Part shown: one piece after another, positions 29,579 through 47,883 of the stretch
Numbering within the stretch: the stretch's first letter is position 1
How the letters are laid out: every line of letters begins with the position of its first letter
NCBI GenBank assembly: GCA_023489275.1
Contig: JAMDDD010000009.1
Span: forward strand, 436-64,435
DNA: 64,000 nt
Direction: 5' to 3'
Source of the DNA: Actinomycetota bacterium
GTDB taxonomy: Bacteria > Actinomycetota > Thermoleophilia > BMS3ABIN01
Translations under genes and position numbers: made by a program
The notes under the pieces: model-generated
What the model saw: only the letters and a program-made list of their open reading frames with translations
Databases searched by the model: none
Told to the model about the DNA's origin: nothing

Positions 29579-29936
29579 GGGGGCGACCTGGTTTCGACGG
29601 GGTCGATCTGGACGGGAGCAGCAAGCCGAGCTGCCGGCGGGCTCGTTAAACAGCCGGAAAACCTAAAGTAAACGCAGACAATAATCTCGCGTTAGCCGCT
29701 TAATTTAAGCGGCTCGTCGCCCCCGGTTCGTCCGTGACCGGGACCAGCGGCGTCAGATAGCGGACTACGCCACCGCGGCCGCCTCTCGCCGTAGTGCGCG
29801 AAGCCTTAGGGAGGCTGGCGAACCGGATCCGGTCTTCGCGGAGCCGGCGCGCGAGATTTAAAAGCGAAGACTAAGCTTGTAGCGGCTCCCCTTCGGGTGG
29901 CTTCGGACGCGGGTTCGATTCCCGCCGCCTCCACCA
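29579..29936 (+). ncRNA. ssrA: transfer-messenger RNA (tmRNA); predicted tag peptide ADNNLALAA (resume codon GCA at 29684, stop TAA 29701-29703)
   Basis: 5' end GGGGGCGACCTGGTTTCGACGGGG and 3' end GGACGCGGGTTCGATTCCCGCCGCCTCCACCA (tRNA-Ala-like acceptor/T-arm plus CCA); internal ORF ending LALAA-stop. Confidence 0.9.
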
Positions 29937-29949
29937 TCTTCCACACCTC

Positions 29950-30020
29950 TGAAAATGCCTTGTTTAAGGCATTTTTTGTTATCCGATATCGTAAGAAGCC
30001 GGCGGGAATCGAACTTGTCT
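29950..30020 (+). repeat. direct repeat A, copy 1 (~70 bp; second copy 35885-35955, ~88% identity); candidate island boundary/att
   Basis: CTGAAAATGCCTTGTTTAAGGCATTTTTTGTTATCCGATATCGTAAGAAGCCGGCGGGAATCGAACTT matches CTCAAAAATGTCTTGTTTAAGGCATTTCTTGTTCCCCGATATCGTAAACAGCTGGCGGGAATTGAACTT. Confidence 0.8.
29952..29982 (+). terminator. rho-independent terminator of ssrA
   Basis: AAAATGCCTTGTTTAAGGCATTTTTTGTT hairpin plus U-tract. Confidence 0.75.
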
Positions 30021-30053
30021 GGTTTTCGGAGGTCTGCCTCTTGCAAAGAAAGC

Positions 30054-30073
30054 AGTGATACTTTAGTATCACT
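30054..30073 (+). promoter_or_regulatory. perfect 9-2-9 palindrome abutting the phd start codon (candidate antitoxin operator)
   Basis: AGTGATACT-TT-AGTATCACT ends 3 nt before ATG 30076; TTGCAA -35-like hexamer upstream. Confidence 0.6.
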
Positions 30074-30075
30074 CT

Positions 30076-30333
30076 ATGCGAACCGAAATCGTTACAACTC
30101 TTAAGCGCCAAGCCACCAAGCTTCTCTCAGAACTGGAAAAGAGCAAGGAGCCCATCCTGATAACCCAACATGGGGTACCGAGCGCTTATCTGGTGGATGC
30201 CGAGACCTATGAAGCTCAACAGCGCCGGATGAGTCTTCTGGAGGGGATCGCCCGAGGGGAAAAGGCAGTCGAAGAGGGCCGCACTCTTTCTCACGCGCAA
30301 GCAAAGAAGCGCATGGCTCGATGGCTGAAATAA
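30076..30333 (+). CDS. Phd/YefM-family antitoxin
   Basis: 85 aa; ...PILITQHGVPSAYLVDAETYE... pattern typical of Phd/YefM; stop overlaps the parE start. Confidence 0.8.
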   Translation: MRTEIVTTLKRQATKLLSELEKSKEPILITQHGVPSAYLVDAETYEAQQRRMSLLEGIARGEKAVEEGRTLSHAQAKKRMARWLK

Positions 30334-30656
30334 TTTGGACTGAACCTGCGCTGGCAGATCTGGATGCCATCGCGGATTATATCGCGCTGGATAATCCGGA
30401 AGCGGCCAGGAAACTAGTCCGGAAGGTTTTTCGCCACGTGGGGCAATTGGCTGATCATCCCAAAAGCGGTTCAAAACCGCCTGAGTTGAAGGGATGGCGC
30501 TACCGGCAGATCGTTGAACCACCATGTCGGATCTTCTACCGGGAAGACGGTAGGCGTGTCTTTATTCTATATGTCATGCGAGGAGAGATGTCACTCCATC
30601 CTTCAGTTATTGATTCCCGCGACCAGACTCGAAGTGACGAAAACAATGGCCCATAA
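30321..30656 (+). CDS. ParE/RelE-family toxin
   Basis: 111 aa; ...WRYRQIVEPPCRIFYREDGRRVFILYVMRG... core. Confidence 0.75.
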   Translation: MAEIIWTEPALADLDAIADYIALDNPEAARKLVRKVFRHVGQLADHPKSGSKPPELKGWRYRQIVEPPCRIFYREDGRRVFILYVMRGEMSLHPSVIDSRDQTRSDENNGP

Positions 30657-31045
30657 GCGAAAAGGACAACTAACCCCCGCTCCCCAGTGGTGGAAGCATC
30701 TGCGTGCCTGGAAGCGCATCGCCAACAAACGCGAGCGCCGGGCAGAAAAACAAGGGATCAAGAGGGGGGCCTAAAATGGCTATCCCGGCTTTTCAGGATT
30801 TAATGTTGCCGTTACTAATATTTGCGAGCGACGGCCAAGAACATACACCGCGTGAAACAGTTGAAACACTGGCGGATGAATTCTCGCTGACCGAGGCGGA
30901 CCGGCAGGAGCTGCTGCCCAGCGGCCGGCAGGCGACTTTTGATAACCGGGTCGCTTGGGCTAAAGCTCATATGAAAATGGCGGGCCTCTTAAGCTCACCA
31001 AAGAGAGGTATTTACAGGATAACTGATCGCGGTCAGGAGGTTGTT
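30643..31045 (+). repeat. ~400-bp direct duplication (second copy 36826-37231, ~97% identity) covering the small basic ORF and the 5' third of mrr
   Basis: Near-identical nucleotide runs read in both places; divergence after ...GATCGCGGTCAGGAG. Confidence 0.85.
30646..30774 (+). CDS. small highly basic protein (42 aa), duplicated at 36829-36957
   Basis: MAHKRKGQLTPAPQWWKHLRAWKRIANKRERRAEKQGIKRGA conserved in both copies with synonymous/conservative changes only. Confidence 0.45.
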   Translation: MAHKRKGQLTPAPQWWKHLRAWKRIANKRERRAEKQGIKRGA

Positions 31046-31683
31046 AAACAAGCGCCGCAAAGAATTGATCTGAGATTTCTTAGGCAGTTTCCGGAATATA
31101 TTGAAGCCAGAACTAAAAAGAAGGGTGCCGATAATCTCTCCGATGAGTCGAGGAAAAGACGGGCAGGACTCCGGAAGAGTCAATGGAAGCCGCATATAGA
31201 CATATCAACAACGATCTTGAAAGTGAAATACTGCAGACTATTAAAAGCTGCTCACCACGTTTTTTTGAACAGCTGGTTGTCGATTTGATTGTCAGGATGG
31301 GATATGGTGGCTCCCGGCAGGATGCAGGCAAGGCTGTTGGCAAAAGCGCCGATGGTGGAATCGACGGTATCATCAAGGAAGACAAGTTAGGCTTGGATAA
31401 CGTGTATATTCAGGCCAAGAAATGGGAGAACTCTGTCAGCAGGCCTGAGATACAAAAATTTGCTGGCGCGCTACAGGGCCATCGAGCAAGAAAAGGAATA
31501 TTTATCACAACTTCTTCATTTACAAATGGCGCAAGGGAATACGTAGCCGGGATTGAAAGCAAGATAGTTCTGATAGACGGCGATGAGTTGGCGGAGCTGA
31601 TGATTGATTTCGAAGTGGGCGTTTCGACTATTGCGTCTTACAATGTGAAAAAAATTGATATGGACTATTTTACGGAAGATTAA
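30776..31683 (+). pseudogene. mrr: Mrr-family type IV restriction endonuclease, disrupted by a frameshift near 31150-31160
   Basis: N-terminal Mrr_N winged-helix (MAIPAFQDLMLPLL...) in one frame to ~31150; Mrr catalytic domain (D..GIDGI...QAKKW) continues in another frame from 31147 (..TPEESMEAAYRHI..). Confidence 0.75.
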
Positions 31684-31857
31684 CGACTTGCCTTGGCAAT
31701 CCGCTCCAGCCGGCTCAAAATACATAGCTCAGAGTTCGAATACCGTTGCACCGCCTCCATCATTTTCCAGCCTCTCAAAAATGCCGTGATAACATTATAT
31801 TATTATCCTGCAAGTAAAATTGGGAAGGAAGAAATACCCTATGGCGGTGGCAATAAG

Positions 31858-31998
31858 ATGCAAAAATGTCTACCAATTCTATTCCTCTGCGTCATCATAG
31901 GGTTTTTGGCGGCGACATTAGGAACAGTAGCATTTATTGTTATCTCAATTTTAGTTATATTCTTTATTGGCAGTTATTCAAACAGGCGGAGGAAGTGA
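31858..31998 (+). CDS. tiny hydrophobic peptide (46 aa) in AT-rich island DNA (speculative)
   Basis: MQKCLPILFLCVIIGFLAATLGTVAFIVISILVIFFIGSYSNRRRK, single TM. Confidence 0.2.
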   Translation: MQKCLPILFLCVIIGFLAATLGTVAFIVISILVIFFIGSYSNRRRK

Positions 31999-32045
31999 GA
32001 AATAATAATGGGCAGAAAAGCTGACCCAAACAATACCAGCTCTCA

Positions 32046-32146
32046 AAAATGCCGGGGTATAGGGATGTGCAGTGCGTGGACCACTTTCGACCTGTACAAC
32101 TCTAGCATCTTGTCAAGTCGAAGGGGTGTGTAATCCGCCAGGCTTC
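32046..32146 (+). repeat. inverted repeat B, copy 1 (~100 bp; inverted partner 35790-35890, ~95% identity)
   Basis: GGGTATAGGGATGTGCAGTGCGTGGACCACTTTCGACCTG...AATCCGCCAGGC present as reverse complement at 35790-35890. Confidence 0.8.
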
Positions 32147-32484
32147 AGCTAATCTCAGACCTTTATCAAGTATCTCTAGTGAGGATGATTCAGTCAGGTT
32201 TGGCGGGGTTTGGGAGGACGTGGAGTCGAAAAGGTGTGGATCACAAATCGGGAAGAAGTTAAATCACGACACCACTGCTTCAGTGCCTGCCCGAATCTTT
32301 AAGCCTCTCCATCATGGAGGAACTCAGCCTTCGTCTGCCATTAAGCACGGCCCTCAGGTTAGCGGGGGTCTCTTCGGGTGCGGAATCTTCTATAAGTAGG
32401 GATTAGGTTGATTGGTAGGCTAAGCGCATACCAATCTTGACCCCTTGGACCCGTCTTTCGACTACCAGTCTTGCCCGGCATCAG

Positions 32485-32584
32485 TACATGCTCGTGAGCT
32501 GATCCCATTATGGGCCATAGCACTTTCAAGGCTCACCTCCTGGAAAAGCATTATTACACGCTTGTGAGCTGATCCCATTATGAG
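32485..32584 (+). CRISPR. possible degenerate CRISPR relic: two 30-nt repeats (32485-32514, 32555-32584; 3 mismatches) separated by a 40-nt spacer
   Basis: TACATGCTCGTGAGCTGATCCCATTATGGG versus TACACGCTTGTGAGCTGATCCCATTATGAG; a Cas1 fragment lies 2.6 kb away; only two units, so weak. Confidence 0.3.
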
Positions 32585-33923
32585 AATCGTTACCGTCGAT
32601 CAACCAGGAGTTGTTCACAAGCTCGAACGTATAGTCCAGCGTCCAGTCGTCGCAGGTATCGCCGTTCGGCCCATAATCCGCATCCTGCGTGCTCGTGAAG
32701 GTAACAAACACCTTCAGCGTTGCTGCGTCCAACGGTGTCATGCTATGGATGGCGACGTTGAAATCGTGGCTTGTGGCATCAGCGCCGGCCAAATGTTCGA
32801 TGCTGCCCACCCGCTGCTGGCCCGCCGGCGTGAATTGTTGCCACACCATCTGCCAGTCCCCAGTGTTGATGCCCCAGAAGTAGGCCCCCAATGTCGCTGC
32901 TACATCGCTGGCGCCGGGCTGTGCGGCCAGTTCGCTCGGGACTGCGATCGGAACAGAGTCATGTGACAGACTCGGAGACGAGGTAGTCGGCGAGGGAAAT
33001 GAGCTGTTCGCTTGCGGTGAGCTGCTCGTCGTCCTTAGTGCCAATCTGCCTGGCGAGGCCACCGCGGCCGCTGAAGGCGTCGCTGGTGATGTCGTTTTGT
33101 GACGATCATTTAGCACGAAGAGACCGTATGTAATAACAAACGCCGCAGTGAAAACGATGACAAAGATGACGAGCACCACGATCGGTGTGTGTCTTCGGCT
33201 GCGCCCCAGGCCGGGGGGTGACTGTAAGCCGCCTTGCGTCTCTAGTCCTTTGCCAAACGAAGTAACCGCGCTTTGCAGAACGATCGTGCGGTCACACATC
33301 TCTGCCAGGCGGGGGTCATGGGTGACGACAATCACGGGAACCTTCTGTGCCAGCACCTTGAACAAACCGGCAACCTCGGCCATCAGGCCTGGATCGAGGT
33401 TAGCGGTCGGCTCGTCAGCGATGACAAGTTCAACGTCACGGGCGAGCATGCGGGCGATGGCGACCCGCTGGCGCTGGCCACCGGAAAGGCTACCGATCTT
33501 GCGCTCAGCGAAGTCATTGAGATCAACTTGGTTAATACTTGACTCTATACGAGCAGGGCGCCACTCTGAGGGCACCTGAGCGTCACTGAGATCTTGCTCC
33601 AGTGTCCGTTTCGGTGTCCAGTTGGCAAGCAGGCCAAAGTCCTGTGGGATGAGGCCAATGCGCCTCAGTTGGCGCTGGCGATCGGCATCGCGGCGTAGCT
33701 CCTGCCAGTCGGTGCCAAGCACCTTGACAGTGCCCTCGTAGGGTTCCTGCAGGGTGCCGGCAAGTAGCTCGACGAGGGTTGTCTTACCGGCACCACTGGG
33801 GCCGGTAATGGCAATCAGACCACTGCCACTGATATCGAGGAAGGGGATGCGCAAGACGTCTTCCTGCGTGTCCGCATAGCGATAGCGCAAGTCGCGAATC
33901 GTGATCAGTGGGGTGCTCATCAC
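32526..33923 (-). CDS. ABC ATPase (FtsE/MacB-type) fused to a TM helix, Ser/Thr/Pro-rich linker and ~130-aa extracytoplasmic domain
   Basis: Walker A GPSGAGKTT, signature LSGGQRQRVAIARML, Walker B LVIADEPTANLD, H-loop VTHD; then IVVLVIFVIVFTAAFVITYGLFVL TM and C-terminal domain; the last ~20 codons read through the CRISPR-like repeats so the true stop is uncertain. Confidence 0.7.
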   Translation of the reverse strand: MMSTPLITIRDLRYRYADTQEDVLRIPFLDISGSGLIAITGPSGAGKTTLVELLAGTLQEPYEGTVKVLGTDWQELRRDADRQRQLRRIGLIPQDFGLLANWTPKRTLEQDLSDAQVPSEWRPARIESSINQVDLNDFAERKIGSLSGGQRQRVAIARMLARDVELVIADEPTANLDPGLMAEVAGLFKVLAQKVPVIVVTHDPRLAEMCDRTIVLQSAVTSFGKGLETQGGLQSPPGLGRSRRHTPIVVLVIFVIVFTAAFVITYGLFVLNDRHKTTSPATPSAAAVASPGRLALRTTSSSPQANSSFPSPTTSSPSLSHDSVPIAVPSELAAQPGASDVAATLGAYFWGINTGDWQMVWQQFTPAGQQRVGSIEHLAGADATSHDFNVAIHSMTPLDAATLKVFVTFTSTQDADYGPNGDTCDDWTLDYTFELVNNSWLIDGNDSHNGISSQACNNAFPGGEP

Positions 33924-33935
33924 GAAACTCCGCTG

Positions 33936-34511
33936 CTATCCTTTACGCAGCATTGCCGGGCTGATGTTGGTCGATCGCCAGGCGGGAAGCAGGGTCGCTG
34001 CCAGAGCAAGCACGATTGTCACCGGAAAGGCAGCCAGCAAGGAGACCAAGTTGAAGGCCACCGGCAGCACGGTCGTCTGGCGCAAGATGCCCGCCGCCAG
34101 GATGCCTAAGGCTTCGCCGACTAGGCCGCCGATCAAACAGGGGTAGAACATAGCGATGAGAAACTCGCGCAGCAGGCGCGAGCGCAACACACCGCTCTGA
34201 CGGCGCACAGCGATCTCCTCGCGGCGGTTGCGCATTACAGTGACGCCGAGAGTAAAAGTAGCGGCGGCAGTTTGGCTTAGCATGGCAGCCACCACGACGA
34301 TTGTGAGTACGGTAAGGATTTGCTCGACTAGGGCAGTGTTCACAGCCTGCGTGTGCTCGACATTCGGGTTGTCAACTAGGTGGGTGATCTTCTCTGCCAC
34401 GCCAAATGCAACACTCATCAGCAAGACGGAGAAGAACACCCCTATAAAAACGGCGATGGCGGCTGCCGCCTGCCAGGGTTCACGATGATGGATTTTTACT
34501 TGAGCAGGCAC
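33936..34511 (-). CDS. minimal FtsX-family ABC permease (no periplasmic domain)
   Basis: 191 aa, 4 TM, FtsX signature RNRREEIAVRRQSGV. Confidence 0.65.
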   Translation of the reverse strand: MPAQVKIHHREPWQAAAAIAVFIGVFFSVLLMSVAFGVAEKITHLVDNPNVEHTQAVNTALVEQILTVLTIVVVAAMLSQTAAATFTLGVTVMRNRREEIAVRRQSGVLRSRLLREFLIAMFYPCLIGGLVGEALGILAAGILRQTTVLPVAFNLVSLLAAFPVTIVLALAATLLPAWRSTNISPAMLRKG

Positions 34512-34514
34512 GAA

Positions 34515-34757
34515 TCACTCTTTGTTCGTGGATTGAGCAGATGATTGAATAACAGATTTAAAGATGCTTATCACTCCGAAGAATAAAATAACCCCCGACA
34601 GGGCCATGAGGCTCAAATACACAGGCTCCTTGAGGTAGAAGTTTCTCCCCTGCTCCACCATCATCAGTTCATCGCCAAGACCTGAAGGGGGCCGTACGGA
34701 ATAAACGGCGATCAATCCGATGGCACCTATCACGAGCAGAATGACGCCCTTTTTCAT
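34515..34757 (-). CDS. small two-TM membrane protein, first gene of the ABC operon
   Basis: 80 aa, two hydrophobic helices; sits downstream of a 450-bp AT-rich promoter region. Confidence 0.4.
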   Translation of the reverse strand: MKKGVILLVIGAIGLIAVYSVRPPSGLGDELMMVEQGRNFYLKEPVYLSLMALSGVILFFGVISIFKSVIQSSAQSTNKE

Positions 34758-35212
34758 AGTTTCCTCACATTCATTGATTAGGTCACTGAATCATAATTAT
34801 TCAGTTTCATATCGTCAGCATTGTTAAGCTCTACCCACGTAATATGATTAAACCTCAAACATGATTTTAGAATGCCTTTTGTAATTATCTTTCTGCTTGG
34901 GTGAAGTCCCAATTCTGTTGTAAATTTGCTTTCCGGTAGACTGACTCATCCTAGCCGATTTTGACTAGCTTCCCGTTTTGTTTTTCTTCCTGCCGTTCCT
35001 TCCACTCAAAGTATTCCGTCATGTCGAAGTAACGCGTGCCAGTTGAACAACACTTCTTGAACTTCAGATTCCTTCGTCGAGCCAGTAGGAGAGCATCTTT
35101 AGCAGTAATGCTTTTTAACATTGCTTGACTAGGTCAGTAGAAAATGCAAATAAAGCTACGTGCCTAATTTATCATGGAATTGTCAGGCTGCAAATTTTTT
35201 TCTAGTTTAGAG

Positions 35213-35569
35213 TTACGTTGGAGTTACCATGTTTCTGTTACCATCACAGAGCCCCTTTGAACTATGATTCCCAGGTTGCGCACACTTCGTCAATGTGTCT
35301 ATCGCGGCCTCAAGAGAAGCCACCGATGCCGAGATGCTTTGCACCACCAGCCGTGCCACCTCTGGATGAAGCCGGCACACCCCCTTTTTATCAATCACGA
35401 AGTCCCTGGGCGTGAACGTCTGCGAACAAACAAACGCCAGCACCTCTCGGTCCACCTTTGGTCGGTGCGACTCCATGAGATCATTAACGAAAGAATCCCG
35501 CCCCTCCCGGCAGACATGCAGGAAGCCGATCGTCGGATCAAGGCCAACCTCGGAGATAGCAAAGCGCAC
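35213..35569 (-). pseudogene. cas1: Cas1 C-terminal fragment (CRISPR integrase remnant)
   Basis: GLDPTIGFLHVCREGRDSFVNDLMESHRPKVDREVLAFV...DFVIDKKGVCRLHPE matches the conserved Cas1 block GLdPylGflH...slvlDLMEpFRPlVDr.vl; N-terminal two-thirds absent. Confidence 0.6.
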
Positions 35570-35620
35570 CTGACTTTCAAGGAGGGCGTATGAGATGGTC
35601 CAGCTTTCGTGGACACTTTT

Positions 35621-35760
35621 TTAAGGCTCCTGCTGCTCCAGCCAACGCTCCTCAAACTTCTTCGGGCTGACATATCCGAGCGACGAATGCAGCCGGTTTG
35701 AGTTGTAATACATCTCGATGTAGTCAACTATATCTCTTGTTGCCTCCTCTCGGCTATGGT
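35621..35760 (-). mobile_element. IS3-family transposase OrfB C-terminal fragment
   Basis: ...YHSREEATRDIVDYIEMYYNSNRLHSSLGYVSPKKFEE matches the OrfB tail and the other IS3 copy at 41840-42491. Confidence 0.7.
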
Positions 35761-35884
35761 AGCGGCGGCCGCGCACCTGGTCAGATTTAGAGCCTGGCGG
35801 ATTGCACACCCCTTCGACTTGACAAGATGATAGAGTTGTGCAGGTCGAAAGTGGTCCACGCACTGCACATCCCTATACCCGCCC

Positions 35885-35955
35885 TCAAAAATGTCTTGTT
35901 TAAGGCATTTCTTGTTCCCCGATATCGTAAACAGCTGGCGGGAATTGAACTTCCG
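35885..35955 (+). repeat. direct repeat A, copy 2
   Basis: See copy 1 at 29950-30020. Confidence 0.8.
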
Positions 35956-36082
35956 TTCCAACGACTCTCATAAAAACACAAAGCCCAGTCAATAATTTCA
36001 GTTGACAGAATGCTGGCAAATAAATCCGCAGCATTCATAAGATGTCCGCATGAAGATATAATGGCTTTCAAAAGGAATATGC

Positions 36083-36409
36083 ATGGGGAATCTGACAACA
36101 AATGAGAAAAAGGCTTTAACTGACTTTCGCGATGTCCTGGTTGCAGACTTCGGCGCGTTAGACGTCCGCCTTTTCGGGTCTCGTGCGCGTGGCGAGGGCG
36201 ATGAAGAGTCGGATCTGGATGTTTTTATCGTCCTTCCTCAAATTGACTGGGAACTGGAGAAGAAAATTTACGGCCTCTCCTTTGATATTAGTCTGGGACA
36301 CGCTGTGCTTATTTCTCCGATTCTCTATTCTCAAAGTGATATCGAAAATCCATCCATAATGATTTCGCCTCTTTACAAGACCGTTCTGCGAGAGGGCGTG
36401 AAGATTTGA
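36083..36409 (+). CDS. minimal nucleotidyltransferase (MNT) antitoxin of a HEPN/MNT pair
   Basis: GSRARGEGDEESDLDVFIV polbeta-type NTase motif; 108 aa; 4-nt overlap with HEPN gene. Confidence 0.8.
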   Translation: MGNLTTNEKKALTDFRDVLVADFGALDVRLFGSRARGEGDEESDLDVFIVLPQIDWELEKKIYGLSFDISLGHAVLISPILYSQSDIENPSIMISPLYKTVLREGVKI

Positions 36410-36798
36410 ATGATGACTTGAGAAGCCTCGTGGAATATCGACTTGATGAGGCACATGAATCGATTGAAGAAGCAGTTCTCTTGCTGCATGATGGTAAACC
36501 ACGCGGCGCTTTAAGCCGGGCGTATTATGCGATGTTCTACGCAACCCTTGCGTTGCTCGCAATAAAGGAGCTGGGTGCATCAAAGCATTCGGGTGTTATT
36601 CGCCTGTTCCACGAACATTACGTGCAGGATGGAACATTCGAAAAGGAAATTGCTCGCTCGCTGAGCGTTGCCTTTGATCTCAGAAACAAATCGGATTATC
36701 GCGAACTGATTTCACCTTCCCGTGAAGAAGCACAGGATACGCTTGAAGCAGCGAAAAAGTTTGTGGCCGAGGCAGAGCGGGTCGTCGCGCAAAGATAA
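36406..36798 (+). CDS. HEPN-domain toxin
   Basis: 130 aa helical protein with R-x4-6-H-like motif RNKSDY; paired with MNT. Confidence 0.75.
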   Translation: MNDDLRSLVEYRLDEAHESIEEAVLLLHDGKPRGALSRAYYAMFYATLALLAIKELGASKHSGVIRLFHEHYVQDGTFEKEIARSLSVAFDLRNKSDYRELISPSREEAQDTLEAAKKFVAEAERVVAQR

Positions 36799-36828
36799 AT
36801 ACGGCGAACGATATCGTGAGGGCAAGCA

Positions 36829-36957
36829 ATGGCTCATAAGCGAAAAGGACAACTAACCCCCGCTCCCCAGTGGTGGAAGCACTTGCGTGACTGGAAGCGC
36901 ATCGCCAATAAACGCGAGCGCCGGGCAGAAAAACAAGGGATCAAGAGGGGGGCCTAA
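36829..36957 (+). CDS. second copy of the small basic 42-aa protein
   Basis: Identical architecture to 30646-30774. Confidence 0.45.
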   Translation: MAHKRKGQLTPAPQWWKHLRDWKRIANKRERRAEKQGIKRGA

Positions 36958-36958
36958 A

Positions 36959-37276
36959 ATGGCTATCCCGGCTTTTCAGGATTTAATGTTGCCGTTACTA
37001 ATATTTGCGAGCGACGGCCAAGAACATACACCGCGTGAAACAGTTGAAACACTGGCGGATGAATTCTCGCTGGCCGAGGCGGACCGGCAGGAGCTGCTGC
37101 CCAGTGGTCGGCAGGCGACTTTTGATAACCGTGTCGCTTGGGCTAAAGCTCATATGAAAATGGCAGGCCCCTTAAGCTCACCAAAAAGAGGTATTTACAG
37201 GATAACTGATCGCGGTCAGGAGACAGTTAACCGGAGTTATTACACGGCAACGAATGTGCGTCTGAGTTCTGCATGA
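36959..37276 (+). pseudogene. mrr: truncated second copy of mrr (Mrr_N domain only)
   Basis: MAIPAFQDLMLPLLIFASDGQEHTPRETVETLADEFSL... identical to the first copy up to 37231, then diverges and terminates. Confidence 0.7.
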
Positions 37277-38688
37277 AGGGGACGATGCACTGATAGATAT
37301 TTTCGCATAGCATCAATAATCCGTTCAGGCCGATTTTCGCGAATGCGGCCATATTTCTGAGGTACCCCTTGCGGAGTGACGAATGCCGCTGTATAGCTCC
37401 GGCCGGGCCGAACCTCTTCAATGCCTGCAAACAGTTTTTGAATACGGCGTCCCGGGGGGTTCTCTATTTTGAAGTAGACATTAAGACCGAGACAGCGCTT
37501 GACATATCCTCCCATCTGCTCATACGGATCGCATGAAAACGTCCTTTCAAGATTCTCCTCCAGCATCGCCCTGATTTCCTCTCCTGTTAGCTCTACTGTT
37601 GAGACAGGCGGATTCATGGGAATAATGTTGTAAAGGTCATTCAAGGTTATCTGTCCTGGAACTATTGGTGCGCCGTAGCGCCAGCCATTCGAAAATGCCA
37701 ATTGCGCCCCCGTGTTTTCGAGCAGGGTCTTAAGGAGGAAATTGTCCATAGTAGCTTCCAAAGTTGTTCCCCTGTTGAGCGCTGTGACAGTTTCACCGAC
37801 AACCTCTGCGAGATCATTCTTATAGGGTGCGAGTGCCTGTCTTATCAGTTCATCTACTGTGGGGTCAGGTTGCGTGGCTGCTTCAACCTCAATCAACCGG
37901 TGCCGGTAATCTACGATTTGTCCACCGACCACCTCCAGGTCCAGGCGACCCAAAAAAGAACCATGGCAGCCTGACTGTATAACAATAGTTTTCCCATTGA
38001 GAACCGGTTTATAAAGACGGTTATGGGTGTGACCGCTGAGACAAATATCTATGCCGTGCACCTCGGACAAAAGCTTCATTTCCTGAGGGAACCCGAGGTG
38101 CGAGACCAAGACAACGAAGTCCACCTTTTCTTGAGTGCGCAGCACATCGATAATTGGCGGAAGTTCATCCTTGCCCAGGGTAAAGGATATGCCTTCGCTG
38201 TAGGAGGGCGGCATGGTCTTGTCCACGATATTTGAGGCTATCCCCACAAGGCCGATCCGTAATCCGCCGATCTCTTTTACGACATACGCCTGAAAGACCG
38301 GTTTGCTTGTCTCTTTTTCGTAGACATTGTTTGCCAGCATCGGATATTCAAGCTCGGTGGCCCGCTGCTGGAATACCCTCGGGCCATAAGCAAATTCCCA
38401 GTGTGCCGTCATGGCATCAAGTCCCAACGAATTCAAGATAGGGATCAAATCCCGGCCCTGGGTGTTCAGGGCAGGATAGGTGCCGTGTATGGTATCGCCG
38501 CAGTCGCAAAAGAGAACGCGCCCCTGGCTCTCAGCCCGAATCTGTTTTACGATCGCGGCGATGCGGGCGTAACCACCCGCAAGACGGTATACAGCGCGGG
38601 CGCCCTGCCAAAACATTTCCTGGTGTAAATCAAAATAGGCGTGGCTGTCATTCATTTGAACTATTGTGAACTTGTTACTCCCGCTCAT
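37240..38688 (-). CDS. bifunctional metallophosphatase/5'-nucleotidase
   Basis: Calcineurin-like motifs (VQMNDSHAY, GDTIHG, GHTHN) plus 5'-nucleotidase C-terminal domain; start set at MSGSNKF. Confidence 0.75.
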   Translation of the reverse strand: MSGSNKFTIVQMNDSHAYFDLHQEMFWQGARAVYRLAGGYARIAAIVKQIRAESQGRVLFCDCGDTIHGTYPALNTQGRDLIPILNSLGLDAMTAHWEFAYGPRVFQQRATELEYPMLANNVYEKETSKPVFQAYVVKEIGGLRIGLVGIASNIVDKTMPPSYSEGISFTLGKDELPPIIDVLRTQEKVDFVVLVSHLGFPQEMKLLSEVHGIDICLSGHTHNRLYKPVLNGKTIVIQSGCHGSFLGRLDLEVVGGQIVDYRHRLIEVEAATQPDPTVDELIRQALAPYKNDLAEVVGETVTALNRGTTLEATMDNFLLKTLLENTGAQLAFSNGWRYGAPIVPGQITLNDLYNIIPMNPPVSTVELTGEEIRAMLEENLERTFSCDPYEQMGGYVKRCLGLNVYFKIENPPGRRIQKLFAGIEEVRPGRSYTAAFVTPQGVPQKYGRIRENRPERIIDAMRKYLSVHRPLHAELRRTFVAV

Positions 38689-38807
38689 TCCTATCCCCTC
38701 ATTTCCGTTAGTCCATTGTGTCCTTTTGGGGAATTCAACCACCGCAAATTAGGAACCGAACATACGCAATGTGTCAGGTATAACGCAAAAAGTATTATAG
38801 TCTGTCC

Positions 38808-41839: not shown

Positions 41840-42491
41840 GCTAAGCCGCTTTTCCAAGATACCACATTTCCTCAAACTGACGGGGGCTGACATATCCCAG
41901 CTAGGAATGCAGCCTTTTTGAGTTGTAGAACATTTCCAGATAATCAACGATATCTCTTTTGGCTTCTTCCCTGGTCTGGTAGCTTCGCCAGGATACCCGT
42001 TCCGTCTTGAGGGTACCGAAGAAGCTCTCCGCCACGGCGTTATCCCAGCAATCGCCTTTGCGGCTCATGCTGGAGACGGCGCCGGACTGTTTCAGCAGTT
42101 TCTGAAACTCGTGGCCGCAGTACTGGGAGCCCCGGTCGCTGTGCAGGATAAGGCCGTCCGCCGGCCGCCGGCGCCAGATGGCCATCTGAAAGGCGTCCAT
42201 GACCAGCTCCTGGGTAATGCGACCGCTCATGGCCCAGCCCACCACCTGGCGGGAGAACAGGTCCAGGACCGTTGCCAGATAGAGCCAGCCTTCACGGGTC
42301 CATACGTATGTGATGTCCGAGACCCAGGTACGGTTGGGCGCCGCCACTTCAAAGTCACGGTTAAGCAGATCGGAGCCAACCGCCACGAGGATCTGGTTTA
42401 GCGCCGTTTCGGCAAGACCCTGAAGACCACTGTCGCTTACCAGCAGCTCTTTAACTTGCTCGCCGTTCAGGTTAATCTGATACGCGGTCAT
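41840..42491 (-). mobile_element. IS3-family transposase OrfB (DDE integrase core) with in-frame TAG, no OrfA present
   Basis: ...[14 protein letters not shown]...HSDRGSQY... DDE region; RLHS-TAG-LGYVSP interruption; upstream region lacks OrfA. Confidence 0.75.
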
Positions 42492-42704
42492 CGCTTCCTC
42501 CTATAGTTGGCTTCTTGCTCGAAACCAATCTATCGGAAAAGCGATGGCCGTTTCTACAACCCAGGCTTGGAATTTACAGCAGTATAGGGGCACGACCCTT
42601 GTGGCAAGTGATCGTCTGCATATTTTTGACATTTCGCCTATAATGGCCATATCATGAATGCACCATTTTTTTTCTTCTTGTAACGTAGGCAGACTGACAG
42701 GTGC

Positions 42705-44831
42705 TTGCCGCGGAGGCGGATTCTTGTGAGTAATCTGCAACATACCGCGACTGAAACTGTGCCCGCTTCCCGAAGCGGCCTCGCGCTGGACCTGTTCAAC
42801 CGTGTCCGTGCTTCTCTCCAGAGTCCCGCGCTGGTGGGCGAAGGCGGAGCGCGCGTCCGTTACTTGCGCGTGCAGTGGTGGGTTACCTTCTGGCGCTTCC
42901 TCATCCTGCTGCAAATCCCCGAGGTCACTCTGGTGCAGCCCGGCCGCTTTGAGTCGCTTCCCCGCGCCTACATTCTGATGGCAGTGGCCGCGGCATACGC
43001 CGCTGTCAATTACCTGATCGCGACGCGGACCCGGGCCGGTGGCAGGCTGGCCTTCCACCTGATGGATCTTGGGGTCTGTTCGGCGCTGCTGCTGCTGGCA
43101 GCCGGCGACGACAAGCTGCTGTTTGTGATGACATTTTACTCGTTCTCGAGCCTGCTGGCGCGCCCAACTGTGCTGTTCCGCGAGATGGTGCCGGCTACCG
43201 CCGCGCTCAGCATTGCTTTTCTCGCGGCCTACTGGCTCCAGGGCCAGAGCCCCCGCAATCTGCTTGGCTCTCCCAGCGAGCTCGACAGCTTTATGCTCTA
43301 CTTTTTTTTCGGAATCGGTTTTGTGGGCTTCTCAGCCGTGCTCCGGCGCGCCAGCTCACTTGAGCTGGACTCGCATCTCGAAGAGCAGCGGCAAAGATAC
43401 CGCCGTCACCTTCACGACGACCTGGGCAACACGCTGTGCGGGCTTCACTTCCGGATTCAGAGTCTGTGGCAGATATCAGAATCTGCTGAACTGGGCAGAG
43501 CGCTCCGGTTTTTAGCAGAAGGATATGGACGAGCTGCCAGCGTTCTCTCGCGTCTGCTGAGCGGTCTGGAGGACAGGCCAGTTGACAACCTCACCGAGGC
43601 TCTCGTCCGGCTTAAAGCTGAAACGGATCAGGGCGGCGGCCCCTCTCTGCGGCTCCAGGTCCCGGTGAATCCAGTGCGACTCAGCCCGGAGGTCGGATAC
43701 GAAATTATGGCAGTGATCAGCGAGGCTGTCAACAACGCAAAAAAGCACGCTGGCGTTTCTGAGACCACTTTGCAGGTCAGGAAAAGGCTGGGAAAGCTCC
43801 GCATTACAGTTTCCGACGAAGGTAACGGTTTCAATGATGACGAGCTGCAAGTGAGGCAGTCAGCCGGCAGCAAGGGCATCAAAGGAATGTATGAGCGGGC
43901 CGCCCTGATCAAAGGCCGTCTGGAGATAGAGAGCGGCAAGAGACGCGGCACCCGGGTGACGCTGAAAGTTGACGCCAACCGTGGCAACGGGATCTTCAGC
44001 CGCGTTCTTGACTACGACCCCGAGCGCTCCCTGAGCGGCATCTATCCGTTCCTGGTGAGGCTGCGCTTTTTCATGCTGGTCTGGACCCTTATCGGGATCG
44101 CCCTGGTGCCGGACAGTCACCGGGAGAACCTGCTGCTGTTCGCGGTCTGCGCCGGCCTGGTACTCGACGGCTTGGCCTGGGTGGTGCTCAGTTCACCCCT
44201 GTTTCGCATCATCGGCAAGCGGCCCTGGCTGCTGCTGCTTGAGAGCGCCGGTTTCTCCATCCTCGCTTATCTTGTGATGCAGGACAATGTTCCCTATTTC
44301 TTTTCGCTTTATGTAGGTGTGGCCGTCATCATGAACGGCCTCTTTCTCGACGCGATGAAGAACCTGGCTATGACGCTGTTCCTGAACGCCGGCATCGTGA
44401 CAGCGTATCACCTGGCGCCGGCGGCGCTCGTGGCAACTTTTCCCGGCGGGCGCCTGGAGACACCGCTGCAGCATTCGACGATTTACGTCGTCCTGGCCGT
44501 GTCGGCCGGGCTTGCCGGCGAGTTTGTCAAGAATCTGGAAAGCCTGCAGATCAAGGCCATCGCCCGTGTTCTGGCCAGGCAGAGACTAAACATGACGGCT
44601 GAGACTCATCGTCAACTTGATTCTCTGGTAACGGGAATCAGACAGGAGTTTCAGGAGCTTTCAGCGGAAACAACCGGGTCTCTGGACAGCCACAGACTCA
44701 GGGGAATAGAGTCACGCTCCAGTTATCTCAAGACCAGGCTCCGCTCGATTCTGATATCGCTTGACGAACCATTGGAGGCCGTTGACATCACCGGTGATTT
44801 GGGGGTAAGCCCCGGTGACGGCACCGCGTAA
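42705..44831 (+). CDS. sensor histidine kinase (HisKA_3 family) with N-terminal and additional C-terminal membrane domains
   Basis: H-box RRHLHDDLGNTLCGL, HATPase_c (EAVNNAKKHAG...VSDEGNGF...GIKGMYERA); ~6 TM before and ~6 TM after the catalytic core; TTG/GTG start. Confidence 0.75.
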   Translation: MPRRRILVSNLQHTATETVPASRSGLALDLFNRVRASLQSPALVGEGGARVRYLRVQWWVTFWRFLILLQIPEVTLVQPGRFESLPRAYILMAVAAAYAAVNYLIATRTRAGGRLAFHLMDLGVCSALLLLAAGDDKLLFVMTFYSFSSLLARPTVLFREMVPATAALSIAFLAAYWLQGQSPRNLLGSPSELDSFMLYFFFGIGFVGFSAVLRRASSLELDSHLEEQRQRYRRHLHDDLGNTLCGLHFRIQSLWQISESAELGRALRFLAEGYGRAASVLSRLLSGLEDRPVDNLTEALVRLKAETDQGGGPSLRLQVPVNPVRLSPEVGYEIMAVISEAVNNAKKHAGVSETTLQVRKRLGKLRITVSDEGNGFNDDELQVRQSAGSKGIKGMYERAALIKGRLEIESGKRRGTRVTLKVDANRGNGIFSRVLDYDPERSLSGIYPFLVRLRFFMLVWTLIGIALVPDSHRENLLLFAVCAGLVLDGLAWVVLSSPLFRIIGKRPWLLLLESAGFSILAYLVMQDNVPYFFSLYVGVAVIMNGLFLDAMKNLAMTLFLNAGIVTAYHLAPAALVATFPGGRLETPLQHSTIYVVLAVSAGLAGEFVKNLESLQIKAIARVLARQRLNMTAETHRQLDSLVTGIRQEFQELSAETTGSLDSHRLRGIESRSSYLKTRLRSILISLDEPLEAVDITGDLGVSPGDGTA

Positions 44832-45196: not shown

Positions 45197-45883
45197 ATGC
45201 ACATCGAAGACGGTATTTTACCGCCGGAGGCTTGGGGAACATGGTACGGAATTGCGGTCCTGTTTGTGCTACCAGGGCTGCGCGAAATAAGGCGGCGGAC
45301 GCGGGAAGCCCTGTCATACAAGCCCTTGCTGGCGATGGTCGGGGTCGCCGTATTTGTGATTTCAGCGATGCACCTGCCCGTACCCGTGACGGGCTCCTGT
45401 TCCCATCCAGTCGGCACGCCGCTGGCCGCAATCATTGTCGGTCCCTTCGCCACGGTCGTAATTACTACCATCGTCCTTTTTTTCCAGGCTATCTTCCTGG
45501 GGCACGGCGGCATCACCACCATTGGCGCCAACACTTTTTCGATGGGCATCGTCGGCGGTATCGGCGGCTACCTCTGCTGGAAAATGATGCGCTCATTTCG
45601 AAGCCCTATCTGGCTTGCCGCTGGCCTCGCTGGCCTTGCCGGCGATCTGCTCACTTACGTGACCAGTGCCTTTGAGCTGGCCTGGAGCCTGCATGGCAAC
45701 GTTTCCTTGTTTCATCAGTGGCTCGTCTTCTTCATGGGCTATGGACCGACCCAGATTCCGCTTGCCATCGGTGAGGCGGTTTTTAGCGCCGCCGTGCTTC
45801 AGGTTATGTTTAATCGCCGCCCTGATTTGTTGTACAGGATCAAGCTTGCCAGGGAGGCGAAGGTTAATGTTGCCGGTATCTAG
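45197..45883 (+). CDS. cbiM: cobalt ECF transporter substrate-capture component CbiM
   Basis: Characteristic N-terminus MHIEDGIL; 228 aa polytopic; AGGAGG RBS. Confidence 0.85.
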   Translation: MHIEDGILPPEAWGTWYGIAVLFVLPGLREIRRRTREALSYKPLLAMVGVAVFVISAMHLPVPVTGSCSHPVGTPLAAIIVGPFATVVITTIVLFFQAIFLGHGGITTIGANTFSMGIVGGIGGYLCWKMMRSFRSPIWLAAGLAGLAGDLLTYVTSAFELAWSLHGNVSLFHQWLVFFMGYGPTQIPLAIGEAVFSAAVLQVMFNRRPDLLYRIKLAREAKVNVAGI

Positions 45884-46250
45884 AAAACAGGCTTCGGGCC
45901 AAGTCGCCGTCCAGGAGAGTTGGTTCGACCCCTTCACCAAGACCATGCTAACGATAATGCTGGTGCTCCTTATGTTTATTTTCGCCGCTGCCTATTACAT
46001 GGATAGCCATCATATGGCGGCCGGTGGCACTGATGACGCGGTCAACAACATTGCAACTAAGGTATCAAACGACCAGCATCATCCCTTTATAGAACTGCCG
46101 GGAGATGCGCAGGTTGGCGCTTTCTCGGTCGCCAATCTCTTTGTCGGCCTCATTATCGGCCATTCCTGGCATAAACTATTTCCGGCTCGCGAGTCTGAAA
46201 CTGAACCAGACGCCGGGGAAAGGGAAGGCATTGCAAATCACGACGATTGA
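45867..46250 (+). CDS. cbiN: cobalt transport protein CbiN
   Basis: 127 aa with N- and C-terminal TM helices; ATG 45867 overlaps cbiM end (longer ORF in track is an upstream extension). Confidence 0.65.
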   Translation: MLPVSRKQASGQVAVQESWFDPFTKTMLTIMLVLLMFIFAAAYYMDSHHMAAGGTDDAVNNIATKVSNDQHHPFIELPGDAQVGAFSVANLFVGLIIGHSWHKLFPARESETEPDAGEREGIANHDD

Positions 46251-47010
46251 CAGGATCGCCTCCGGCGATACATTTTTCCATCGCCTCGATGGCAGGGTAA
46301 AAACCGTGCTGCTTCTCGTGGCGATCGTCGTTTCCACTGTTATTAATCACTGGTACCTGCTGGCCGGCATCTGGCTGACGGCACTGGTGCTTTTTCATTC
46401 CCTGCGACTCTCCTGGCGTCTTCTTATTCGGCGGCTCTACATTCCCTTTGGCATCGCCTGGCTTGTATTCCTCGATCTTGCCTTCACCAACGGTAGCCAT
46501 CCACTGCTCGGCTTTTCCGTCGGTCCGGTGACGCTCACAGCCTACCGGGAAGGGCTGTGGCTGGGTTTTCTCATCGCGCTGCGCATAATGGCAGCGGTGA
46601 CTCTGGGCAGCGTTCTCACCTTCAGCACTCCCATGATTGAAATACTGGAAACTTTACGCTTGTGCAAGCTGCCCGGTTTTATTGTTGACCTGGCGGCGAT
46701 GATGTACCGCTATGTTTTTGTTCTGGAAGAAACGGCGCGCAATATGCGGCGTTCGCAGCTAAGCCGCATGGGCGCCAGCGCCGGCTGGCTGCAACAGGCG
46801 AGCGACATGGGCCGGGTCGGCGGCCTTGTTTTGACAAAGTCTCTGGACCGAAGCACGATGATTTACAAAGCCATGCTGGCGCGAGGCTACGACGAAAATA
46901 GCATCGGCGCAACTTATTTCACCAGCCCGGTACCGGCATCCGAACGCGGGCTTGGCATAATGACGGTCTTTCTGCTGGTTTCACTGCTGATTTTCGACAT
47001 CTTTTTTTAG
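46231..47010 (+). CDS. cbiQ: cobalt ECF transporter T component CbiQ
   Basis: Polytopic, conserved ECF-T C-terminal ARG..R motif region (ARNMRRSQLSRMGAS); likely TTG 46231 start (track ORF begins 46105). Confidence 0.7.
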   Translation: MQITTIDRIASGDTFFHRLDGRVKTVLLLVAIVVSTVINHWYLLAGIWLTALVLFHSLRLSWRLLIRRLYIPFGIAWLVFLDLAFTNGSHPLLGFSVGPVTLTAYREGLWLGFLIALRIMAAVTLGSVLTFSTPMIEILETLRLCKLPGFIVDLAAMMYRYVFVLEETARNMRRSQLSRMGASAGWLQQASDMGRVGGLVLTKSLDRSTMIYKAMLARGYDENSIGATYFTSPVPASERGLGIMTVFLLVSLLIFDIFF

Positions 47011-47019
47011 CGGGTAAAC

Positions 47020-47883
47020 ATGGAACTTATCAACGCCTCGGGCGTCAGCTTTGTCTATAGCGATGGCCAGCAGGCCCTGAAAAATATTGACCTCTCCATA
47101 AATAGTGGCGAAAAGGTTGCTGTCCTCGGCCCCAATGGCGCGGGCAAATCCACGCTTTTTCAGTTATTCAACGGCCTCCTGACAGCCTCAACCGGAACGA
47201 TCACGGTAAAGGGCCTGCCTGTCCGCAGGGAAAACTACCGGGAAATTCGCACCATCGTCGGCATGGTCTTTCAGGATCCCGATGACCAGCTTTTTAATTC
47301 CACCGTTCGCCAGGAGATCGCTTACGGGCTCAAGAACGTGGGCGTCAAGGACGAGGAGCTGGAATGCGCAATTTCCTGGACCCTCGAAATCGTAGGCCTG
47401 CGCGGCTACGAAACAAAAGGCCCGCATCATTTAAGCGGGGGCGAGAAGAAGCGGGTCGCGCTGGCCAGCGTCCTGGCCATGCGGCCGGAAATCCTGGTTC
47501 TTGATGAGCCGACCGCATCGCTGGATCCGATGGGCGCGAGCAGGCTGATCGATCTGCTCGGTTCCATTAACCGGGAGCTTGGAATTACCGTGATATTTGC
47601 GACTCATGATGTGGACATCGTCCCCCTGCTGGCGGACCGGATTTATCTTTTAAGCAAAGGTGAAATCGTGCTAAGTGGTGACACGTCTGAGATATTTGCC
47701 AATAAGGAAATTATCAGGCAAATCTCGCTGCGCCTGCCCCGGGTTGCGCATCTGGCGGAGCTGCTCAAGCGGGACGGGGTCATCGAGACTGATGCTCTGC
47801 CTCTTACCATTGGCCAGGCCAGGCGGATTTATTTATCCGAACACCTTTCCGCCGCGCCAAGAAGTCTGACAGAAGAAAAATAA
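47020..47883 (+). CDS. cbiO: cobalt ECF transporter ATPase CbiO
   Basis: Walker A GPNGAGKST, signature LSGGEKKRVALASVL, Walker B LVLDEPTASLD. Confidence 0.85.
   Translation: MELINASGVSFVYSDGQQALKNIDLSINSGEKVAVLGPNGAGKSTLFQLFNGLLTASTGTITVKGLPVRRENYREIRTIVGMVFQDPDDQLFNSTVRQEIAYGLKNVGVKDEELECAISWTLEIVGLRGYETKGPHHLSGGEKKRVALASVLAMRPEILVLDEPTASLDPMGASRLIDLLGSINRELGITVIFATHDVDIVPLLADRIYLLSKGEIVLSGDTSEIFANKEIIRQISLRLPRVAHLAELLKRDGVIETDALPLTIGQARRIYLSEHLSAAPRSLTEEK

Follow-up and report, generated by a model that had tools for sequence, protein, structure and literature searches.

A probable array of small, att-flanked cassettes without an integrase, carrying exchangeable toxin-antitoxin pairs, behind the tmRNA gene of a Thermoleophilia bacterium

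We analyzed a 64,000-nt stretch of an Actinomycetota (Thermoleophilia) genome (contig JAMDDD010000009.1 of assembly GCA_023489275.1, positions 436 to 64,435, forward strand; hereafter the window), with a focus on the DNA that follows ssrA, the gene for transfer-messenger RNA (tmRNA). A sequence-only reading of this region had described two tandem modules of matching gene order, each led by a direct repeat. We confirmed that observation, with Phd, ParE, a 42-aa open reading frame (ORF) and Mrr after the first repeat copy and MNT, HEPN, the 42-aa ORF and Mrr_N after the second, and its interpretation, as refined here, was supported. Positions 29937-37230 are probably the tmRNA-proximal part of an array of small mobile cassettes that are flanked by attachment (att) sites, lack an integrase, and form a family specific to one Thermoleophilia lineage. 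The cargo of this family consists mostly of predicted toxin-antitoxin (TA) pairs, along with known or candidate anti-phage genes. What sets these arrays apart is their scale and uniformity, with cassettes of about 1 kb and full 160-nt units, no integrase, up to seven per array, and reshuffling between genomes of this uncultured lineage.

The direct repeat noticed after the tmRNA gene was readily recovered (29952-30016 versus 35888-35952; 65 nt, 57/65 identical, 88%). It had been placed downstream of the ssrA terminator, which proved incorrect, as the terminator hairpin, AAAATGCCTTgtttAAGGCATTTT, is the start of the repeat itself. We found that the repeat is part of the right arm of an attP-like unit of about 160 nt that includes this terminator, and whose leftward extension was recognised from further copies in the window and in a related locus, L001 (related loci are referred to by L numbers). 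The unit opens with a left arm (with ...GCTCAAAATATTnAnCTCAGAGTTCGAATAnCGTTGCA and ...CTCAGAGTTCGAATACCGTTGCA) and a 12-nt core, CCGCCTCCACCA, that equals the last 12 nt of the tmRNA (29925-29936); a variable stretch of about 12 nt leads from there to the terminator hairpin, which is followed by the right arm (with GTTGCCCGATATCGTAAACAGCCGGCGGGAATCGAACTTT and ...GCCGGCGGGAATCGAACTTT). Alignments showed that the tmRNA-proximal copy is the true tmRNA 3′ end joined to the right arm, and that in internal copies the left arm replaces the tmRNA body and is followed by the same 12-nt core and the right arm. This is exactly the pattern expected of tandem site-specific integrations, in which attL would be B-O-P′, the internal junctions P-O-P′ and the last junction P-O-B′. 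The window holds three copies of the unit (29913-30032, corresponding to attL; 31695-31791; and 35876-35960) and none elsewhere in its 64 kb; the idea of a dispersed repeat was rejected when BLAST against the whole window gave no further copies. At the distal end of element 1, the core CCGCCTCCATCA (31751-31762) matches the tmRNA 3′ end at 11 of 12 positions and is followed only by the spacer and the 5′ half of the hairpin, so this copy, interrupted at 31786/31787, forms no hairpin on folding. The second right-arm copy, which runs to 35960, has had its left side cut by an arm derived from an insertion sequence (IS) and keeps its terminator hairpin.

By folding, the hairpin had a free energy of -11.6 kcal/mol in right-arm copy 1, where it lies at 29951-29977, and of -8.3 in copy 2, and the terminator hairpins of the unit are preserved by compensatory changes (e.g., CCTC/GAGG and GGCTT/AAGCC). 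A terminator scanner missed the hairpin that direct folding shows, probably because the A/U-extended stem uses up the T tract. The unit also carries an inverted copy of the tmRNA T-arm: GTTCGATTCCCGCCG, at 29913-29927, forms a perfect 15-nt inverted repeat with the end of the right arm at 30000-30014, 72 nt apart. This inverted copy was nearly invariant in all 43 aligned units, accounts for a weak Rfam match to “permuted tmRNA” (22.6 bits, E=0.3), and may be a recombinase-binding site. An attC-like or other RNA fold of the whole unit was considered and rejected, as RNAalifold on 43 copies returned only the terminator hairpin and an invariant 6-bp pairing (covariation -0.2).

A complete element of the same kind was found at a different RNA gene. 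In L050, a 152-kb contig from another Thermoleophilia metagenome-assembled genome (MAG), the end of a tRNA-Ala(TGC) gene and the right arm (9854-9963) are followed by Phd, ParE, the 42-aa ORF with a second small ORF that we call ORFZ, an intact 307-aa Mrr, and then the left arm and core CCGCCTCCACCA (11838-11901), beyond which lies unrelated chromosomal DNA. The L050 element is 80-82% identical at the nucleotide level to window positions 29912-30604 and 30774-31766, and homology stops at 31766. The presence of the same element at tmRNA and at tRNA-Ala indicates that module 1 (29937-31762, 1.83 kb) is a discrete element and that two RNA genes are used, and the comparison further indicates that the element brings its right arm, terminator included, along with it. 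At the junction, the two targets have only CCTCCACCA in common, which points to a site-specific crossover within CCTCCACCA and argues against homologous recombination. Of the features that define genomic islands at tRNA and tmRNA genes, the region shows regeneration of the RNA-gene 3′ end (the tmRNA is intact and the element starts at 29937, after its CCA, as it likewise does after the CCA of the L050 tRNA-Ala) and a distal direct repeat of that 3′ end (CCGCCTCCATCA in the window, CCGCCTCCACCA in L050), and lacks an integrase of its own. About 20 nt past the distal core of the L050 element, within 11902-11950, is a degenerate tRNA-Ala 3′ end, GGTGGTTCGAACCCGGTATGGTCCACCA, which is probably the scar of an older integration by another element at the same tRNA.

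We next considered how widely the att unit is distributed. With each of 185,579 species represented by one genome, an exact-pattern scan found four loci, all in Thermoleophilia/Actinomycetes MAGs and at one locus per genome, and a scan of Joint Genome Institute (JGI) metagenomes with the left-arm pattern found 29; the pattern was absent from the viral contigs, phage records and plasmids scanned. An nhmmer profile built from full copies gave 70 copies at 35 non-redundant loci, all in Thermoleophilia-type MAGs or metagenomes. Full-length copies numbered 45 of the 70, orientation was never mixed within a locus, and the 35 inter-att spacings ranged from 524 to 9265 nt (median 1209 nt), with as many as seven copies on one contig (L035). 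The head of the array lies at tmRNA in the window, L019, L020 and L060, and once at tRNA-Ala (L050). Two objections foreseen in the sequence-only reading failed in light of these loci: the DNA behind tmRNA is not conserved core genome, as the related MAGs L019, L020, L032 and L060 hold other cassettes there, and the repeat is not a common dispersed one, as it forms co-oriented arrays beside tmRNA or tRNA-Ala and bounds the same element at the different target in L050.

The proposal that these elements have an exchangeable TA slot held up well, in that three types of TA pair occupy one position, with the right arm before them and small ORF-mrr after them in each case: Phd/ParE in window module 1, L050 and L051, MNT/HEPN in window module 2, and a HigB-like/HTH pair in L060, where tmRNA and the right arm lead into HigB-like/HTH, the small ORF and an intact Mrr, and a full att unit then precedes HicAB. 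The small ORF-mrr combination, which the earlier reading had suggested seeking elsewhere, is present in both L050 and L060. The locus is a clean natural example of TA pairs swapped between fixed flanks, an att arm on one side and the small ORF on the other. In the window, the Phd/ParE genes overlap by 13 nt and the MNT/HEPN genes by 4 nt, and their domains fit type II TA families; by adjacency, overlap and domains, both pairs qualify as predicted type II TA systems. A palindromic, operator-like sequence, GTGATACTTTAGTATCAC (30054-30073), lies upstream of phd/yefM. The domain architectures of Mrr, Phd/ParE and MNT/HEPN match known families, with the mrr genes of the window being inactivated.

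Beyond the window, tblastn and clustering identified a complete att-Phd-ParE-ORFZ-small ORF-Zn-ribbon ORF-att cassette in L039 and L001; a complete att-MNT-HEPN-small ORF-att cassette is present in L035, and MNT-HEPN-ORFZ-small ORF-DUF6933/PRiA4 cassettes in L025/L046. A RelE/HTH cassette occurs in four arrays (L009, L021, L035, L048) with differing neighbours, and similar reshuffling was seen for HicAB-MerR (L019, L035, L044), BacA (L032, L035) and an ABC1 kinase (L001, L028). The arrays also carry DUF4365 and Mrr-like nucleases, ArsP, Thi4, a DEDDh exonuclease-BRCT protein, SnoaL, MmgE/PrpD and a class I tRNA-synthetase paralogue, and a number of the cargo proteins fit defence or candidate-defence models of PADLOC (mREase_IV, PDC-S09, PDC-S63, PDC-S48 and an Aga REase-type model).

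None of these cassettes yielded a recombinase. In related arrays, 30 ORFs of at least 220 aa that lie next to att units were scanned directly, and none showed a recombinase domain. Pfam found none in any ORF of 29937-37230, which agrees with the earlier statement that no integrase survives there; the region contains just fragments of an IS3-type transposase and of Cas1. The window ORFs tested between 39.6 and 63.8 kb likewise gave none, apart from an rve transposase of the IS3 type at 41901-42491. A Pfam census across 94 ORFs of the arrays covered the top 25 families, so that families with a single match could escape it. We also found no cognate integrase-bearing integrative and conjugative element (ICE) or integrative and mobilizable element (IME) among 60 fetched loci, viral contigs, phages and plasmids. 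Since the recombinase is not cassette-encoded, it would have to act in trans. We propose that a cassette would enter by site-specific recombination, with the crossover in CCTCCACCA at the 3′ end of tmRNA or tRNA-Ala, that the incoming right arm would give the RNA gene a new terminator, and that repeated insertions would leave full left-core-right junctions between cassettes. The TA pairs may confer stability on the cassettes or take part in defence, and modified DNA would be the substrate of Mrr restriction. It is possible, as a more tentative extension, that this represents active, integron-like gene capture in Thermoleophilia, in which the tmRNA 3′ end would be the counterpart of attI, the left-core-right unit that of attC, and the recombinase would be encoded elsewhere. 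If a trans-acting recombinase does move the cassettes, this would be a second route, besides integrons, to a single-site library of single-gene defence and TA cassettes.

Several points weigh against an array of mobile cassettes. No recombinase candidate was found, and the arrays could be fossil. Homology of about 160 nt would also permit RecA-dependent cassette exchange. Most of the evidence is from MAG and metagenome assemblies that are fragmented, with contigs ending at these repeats, and neither an empty target site nor an excised circular junction was observed. The partial att copies near 31695 and 35881 could be one split unit or two separate units, and the distal end of the array cannot be fixed here, as the 5′-nucleotidase flank is non-syntenic in other relatives. 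An attempt to obtain attB from the closest strains failed because their contigs stop at the tmRNA end: in 97%-identical strains, contigs L005/L006 break exactly at the tmRNA CCA (position 1 corresponding to window 29936), and every tmRNA compared in relatives (L019, L020, L032, L060) already bears a right arm. That contigs end at the att core suggests strain-level heterogeneity or repeat-induced assembly breaks, and array-terminal copies with other downstream DNA (L035 at 6538, L028 at 527) may show the native flank. A 953-nt contig of the same sample, L004, is 100% identical to window 29915-30867 and stops within the 407-nt repeat described below.

The alternative that survives best, though we regard it as unlikely, is that the arrays are decayed conventional islands, once full-size, integrase-bearing islands or prophages at ssrA from which deletions left fragments and att scars. 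The window does contain products of decay (an IS fragment, a Cas1 fragment, one frameshifted and one truncated mrr), and tandem ssrA islands, some without an integration module, are known in Dehalococcoides (PMC3146451). However, none of the 35 inter-att intervals (median 1.2 kb) holds an integrase remnant, and the same compact, intact cassettes recur in different arrays, which random independent decay would not yield.

Duplication within the genome must also be weighed, since the roughly 400-bp duplicate that had been reported is present (30641-31047 versus 36824-37230; 407 nt, about 16 mismatches, 96% identity, 97% over the first 300 nt). The picture of tandem, related elements at tmRNA was supported, with the correction that the two are not adjacent, as 4.1 kb of unrelated, partly IS-derived DNA (31787-35880) lies between them. 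The notion of two matched elements also stands only in part, as the 96% identity of small ORF-mrr reflects recent intragenomic recombination and not two independent acquisitions. The right arm, spacer, MNT, HEPN and ORFZ remnant of module 2 are 80-91% identical to the L035/L046 cassettes (MNT 89% at the nucleotide level), whereas from the start of the small ORF onward module 2 is 96% identical to module 1 versus 85% to L035, and this jump in identity points to a recent homologous exchange that copied small ORF-mrr between the modules. The few differences between the two copies are mostly synonymous, with nine synonymous and four non-synonymous codon changes; in the small ORF, four synonymous changes and one non-synonymous change (one amino acid) were counted. 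Module 2 (35881-37230) would then be an MNT-HEPN cassette whose 3′ part was copied from module 1, with the breakpoint at the small ORF start. An in-situ segmental duplication of the whole terminator-TA-small ORF-mrr stretch, followed by TA replacement and involving no site-specific integration, nonetheless seems highly unlikely. Intragenomic copying did occur, and the small ORF and mrr 5′ parts are 96% identical within the genome versus about 80-85% elsewhere, but this covers no more than the small ORF-mrr part; identity between the right arms is just 88%, MNT-HEPN and its arm are closer to other metagenomes (80-91%) than to module 1, and the same cassettes are att-bounded in many arrays and at tRNA-Ala. 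As a full explanation, duplication is contradicted by L050, L035 and L039.

Both mrr copies of the window are dead. Compared with the intact orthologues of L050 (307 aa; E=2.5e-95 against PADLOC mREase_IV) and L060 (301 aa), copy 1 has a 1-nt deletion after 31147 that splits its domains, and copy 2 is cut at 37230, with homology to the 5′-nucleotidase region of L001 starting at 37231 (BLAST). Neither copy encodes the intact Mrr_N plus Mrr_cat protein by which an Mrr is recognised. In our proposed order of events, the 1-nt deletion in copy 1 and a deletion from within copy 2 to the 5′-nucleotidase gene would have come after the exchange between modules. Insertion of the AT-rich segment and of an unrelated 3.8-kb IS-bounded segment would likewise have come later and broken the att unit between the modules; together with the terminal deletion, these insertions would account for the disrupted state of the array here.

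That the 160-nt unit is instead an intergenic terminator repeat spread by itself or by recombination, like a repetitive extragenic palindrome (REP) or a miniature inverted-repeat transposable element (MITE), with ordinary genes between its copies, is the least probable explanation, because although the unit has a rho-independent terminator, its copies are co-oriented with most genes and no recombinase was found, it bears the exact 3′-terminal 12 nt of tmRNA, arrays start at tmRNA or tRNA-Ala only (with no other window copy and one locus per species genome), and the points at which gene content changes from one genome to another fall at its copies.

Islands stacked in tandem at tmRNA genes are well established, and the closest described system is that of the Dehalococcoides ssrA genomic islands (ssrA-GIs), tandem islands downstream of the single-copy tmRNA gene that are bounded by direct repeats of the ssrA 3′ end, with conserved nucleotides reaching beyond the repeat (McMurdie et al., 2011; PMC3146451). 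In sixteen of those islands, integration depends on a module of six genes that includes the serine recombinase DsiB, and insertion is in the T-loop; 15 without an integration module were proposed to be cis-mobilizable (PMC3146451). The arrays described here share the tandem arrangement, the position downstream of tmRNA and the ssrA 3′-end repeats. In contrast to the Dehalococcoides islands, their intervals are mostly about 0.5-3 kb, 0 of about 35 has a recombinase, the crossover would be at the CCA-terminal CCTCCACCA, the repeat is a terminator-bearing unit of about 160 nt, and the cargo is of the TA/defence kind instead of rdhA. A recurrent backbone of TA pair and small ORF further sets them apart.

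Cis-mobilizable elements (CIMEs) and their accretion are reported for streptococcal ICEs by Pavlovic, Bellanger and colleagues. Like CIMEs, our cassettes are att-flanked, lack recombination and transfer genes, and lie in tandem at one attachment site, and the arrays are tmRNA-anchored tandem integrative elements of the CIME type. A CIME is, however, defined relative to a cognate ICE or IME whose integrase acts on its att sites, and we found no such partner with an integrase for these arrays, whose cassettes are also much smaller, with more per array.

Two other systems bear comparison. The tycheposons of Prochlorococcus carry tyrosine recombinases and replication modules and integrate at tRNA and tmRNA genes, and in the islands of this genus successive integrations push older elements inward, and incomplete tRNA repeats and decayed elements are found throughout (Hackl et al., bioRxiv 10.1101/2020.12.28.424599). 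The arrays here resemble these islands in their tRNA/tmRNA targets and their defence/adaptation cargo, and differ in that no tyrosine recombinase or replication element was found and in that the junctions are complete 160-nt units rather than partial tRNA repeats. With integrons they share co-oriented cassettes of about 1 kb, sites of about 60-160 nt between them, many TA systems and reshuffling between genomes; Vibrio superintegrons are rich in TA cassettes. Unlike integrons, the arrays have no IntI, attI or Pc promoter at the head, the site is a tRNA-like direct repeat and not an attC hairpin, and the TA cassettes have their own promoters. With tmRNA at the head and no folded attC, the arrays are not an integron.

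The 42-aa ORF was examined across the arrays. In 15 distinct homologous DNA copies, the variable columns over the first 35 codons numbered 6/6/29 at codon positions 1/2/3, and pairwise differences at these positions numbered 172, 164 and 1334; this excess at the third position indicates a genuine protein under strong purifying selection. A set of 5.8 billion proteins contained only 14 homologues, which have neither a Pfam domain nor an informative name, and there was no match in Pfam, PHROGs, PADLOC or PDB sequences, such that an ORF of this kind between a TA pair and mrr is without a described counterpart in those four sources. The AlphaFold2 (AF2) model shows a disordered N-terminus and one helix (residues 15-41; pLDDT 78). 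The ORF is always the 3′-terminal gene of the TA operon, across five TA families, and its tightly coupled downstream partner is Mrr, a Zn-ribbon ORF, an exonuclease, or nothing; in copy 1, its start overlaps the parE stop and its end is 1 nt short of the mrr ATG. In L059 (933-1558), on a contig without an att unit, it follows a HicA-HicB pair directly downstream of uvrB, which indicates that its association is with TA operons as such and not only with att arrays.

ORFZ, likewise small, basic and conserved, encodes 48 aa with a CxxC motif (MANHKRKHRRYYSSCALCKPDKYWRTRKDKYGERYRG...); it precedes the 42-aa ORF in many cassettes, overlaps its start and shares its MA(N)HKRK start. Its codon-position variation (8/10/31) shows the same third-position bias. 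It occurs in L001 (15881-15735, minus strand), L039, L020, L021, L023, L046, L050 and L054, the L050 copy being broken by a stop codon and the L046 copy by a frameshift. Related cassettes have the full ORF, and window module 1 has none of it. The RERRAEKQ stretch of the 42-aa ORF may resemble the arginine-rich motif of lambda N, a likeness that a PDB profile search did not recover. Our best guess is that both are nucleic-acid-binding accessory or regulatory peptides, and they could be cassette-borne accessory factors, acting for example in recombination directionality or read-through regulation. Two conserved tiny basic proteins with no Pfam entry or informative name in the sources searched are tied to five TA families.

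Table 1. Features of the window from tmRNA to the end of mrr copy 2.
Feature	Position	Strand	Basis or remark
tmRNA (ssrA), intact, tag ADNNLALAA	29579..29936	+	ARAGORN; Rfam RF00023, 188.7 bits
att right (P′) arm, copy 1	29937..30032 (29913-30032 with tmRNA end, = attL)	+	alignments, nhmmer
phd/yefM antitoxin	30076..30333	+	Pfam PF02604, E=1.3e-14; identical protein MCL6106180.1
parE toxin	30321..30656	+	Pfam PF05016, E=4.4e-20
Small basic ORF copy 1, 42 aa, MAHKRKGQLTPAPQWWKHLRAWKR...	30646..30774	+	
mrr copy 1, type IV restriction endonuclease, Mrr_N + Mrr_cat, pseudogene	30776..31683	+	Pfam
att left (P) arm, core and half hairpin, distal end of element 1	31695..31786	+	nhmmer, model positions 5-101
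AT-rich insert with 46-aa hydrophobic ORF (31859-31999)	31787..32054	+	
IS3-end-bounded segment	32055..35880	.	all contents on minus strand
ABC ATPase, long C-terminal extension	32526-33923	-	
Truncated FtsX	33936-34511	-	
80-aa membrane ORF and 56-aa ORF	inside 32055-35880	-	
Cas1 C-terminal fragment, 118-aa ORF	35213-35569	-	PF01867 positions 206-281, E=3.8e-17
IS3 transposase C-terminal fragment	35621-35863	-	
att right (P′) arm, copy 2	35881..35960	+	nhmmer, model positions 76-160
MNT-type nucleotidyltransferase (MNT/HEPN antitoxin)	36083..36409	+	Pfam PF01909, E=7.7e-9
HEPN toxin	36406..36798	+	Pfam PF05168, E=1.2e-17
ORFZ remnant, last ~26 codons, RKDKYGERYREGKQWLISEKDN	36776..36856	+	
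Small basic ORF copy 2	36829..36957	+	
mrr copy 2, 5′ fragment, Mrr_N only	36959..37230	+	Pfam PF14338, E=4e-31

The DNA between the modules (Table 1) was rejected as part of either one, being without a homologue in related loci and bounded by its own repeats, and on these grounds 31787-35880 was treated as later insertions. The AT-rich insert (40% GC) is flanked by perfect 15-nt direct repeats, CTCTCAAAAATGCCG (31772-31786 / 32040-32054), which correspond to the left half of the hairpin of the att terminator and the end of the spacer before it. Its 46-aa ORF is strongly hydrophobic with a basic tail (MQKCLPILFLCVIIGF...SNRRRK), has a weak PHROG hit (E=0.009) as its sole match, and has the look of a type I toxin-like peptide carried by a very small insertion. 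In the segment that follows, inverted repeats of 90 nt (32055-32144 / 35791-35880, 97% identical), derived from an IS3-family end, enclose 3.6 kb, and no homologue of the segment was found in any related locus. A composite transposon or IS3 element was considered and rejected as an assignment, as only the 90-nt inverted arms and a transposase C-terminal fragment of about 45 codons are present. Target duplications of the IS3 family are 3-5 bp, and the imperfect flanking similarity here, at 12-15 nt, is far longer; the segment could be a composite-transposon relic or the product of an IS-mediated inversion. The drop in GC content that had been reported across the region holds in part (0.40-0.55 versus 0.59-0.64 upstream), but not for the ABC/FtsX block at 32600-34200, where GC is 0.60, the ABC part being host-like.

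Beyond mrr copy 2, a 5′-nucleotidase gene (37240-38742, minus strand) is followed at a distance by a CbiMQO region (45197-47883, plus strand). In the relatives L011-L015, the 5′-nucleotidase gene lies directly upstream of cbiM-cbiQ-ABC in the same orientation, whereas the window has it in inverted orientation, separated from them by 6.4 kb that include TauE, a methyltransferase and an IS3-family element (41862-43058). Relatives found through the 5′-nucleotidase mostly have an MFS-5′-nucleotidase-CbiMQO context without tmRNA, and this difference in context makes the right flank unreliable as a core anchor. In L011-L015, part of an att right arm survives next to the adjoining MFS gene, and the tmRNA-linked variable region may extend past 37240.

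On the other side, the genes upstream of the array head encode a membrane protein, SmpB, a MacB-type ABC protein and RNase R. Two further observations concern the IS-bounded segment. The Cas1 fragment is only the C-terminal quarter of the protein, so that a remnant of a CRISPR adaptation gene lies beside the IS fragment, and a 35-nt direct repeat (32478-32512 / 32548-32582; 89% identical, 70 nt apart) straddles the stop codon of the ABC ATPase at 32526.

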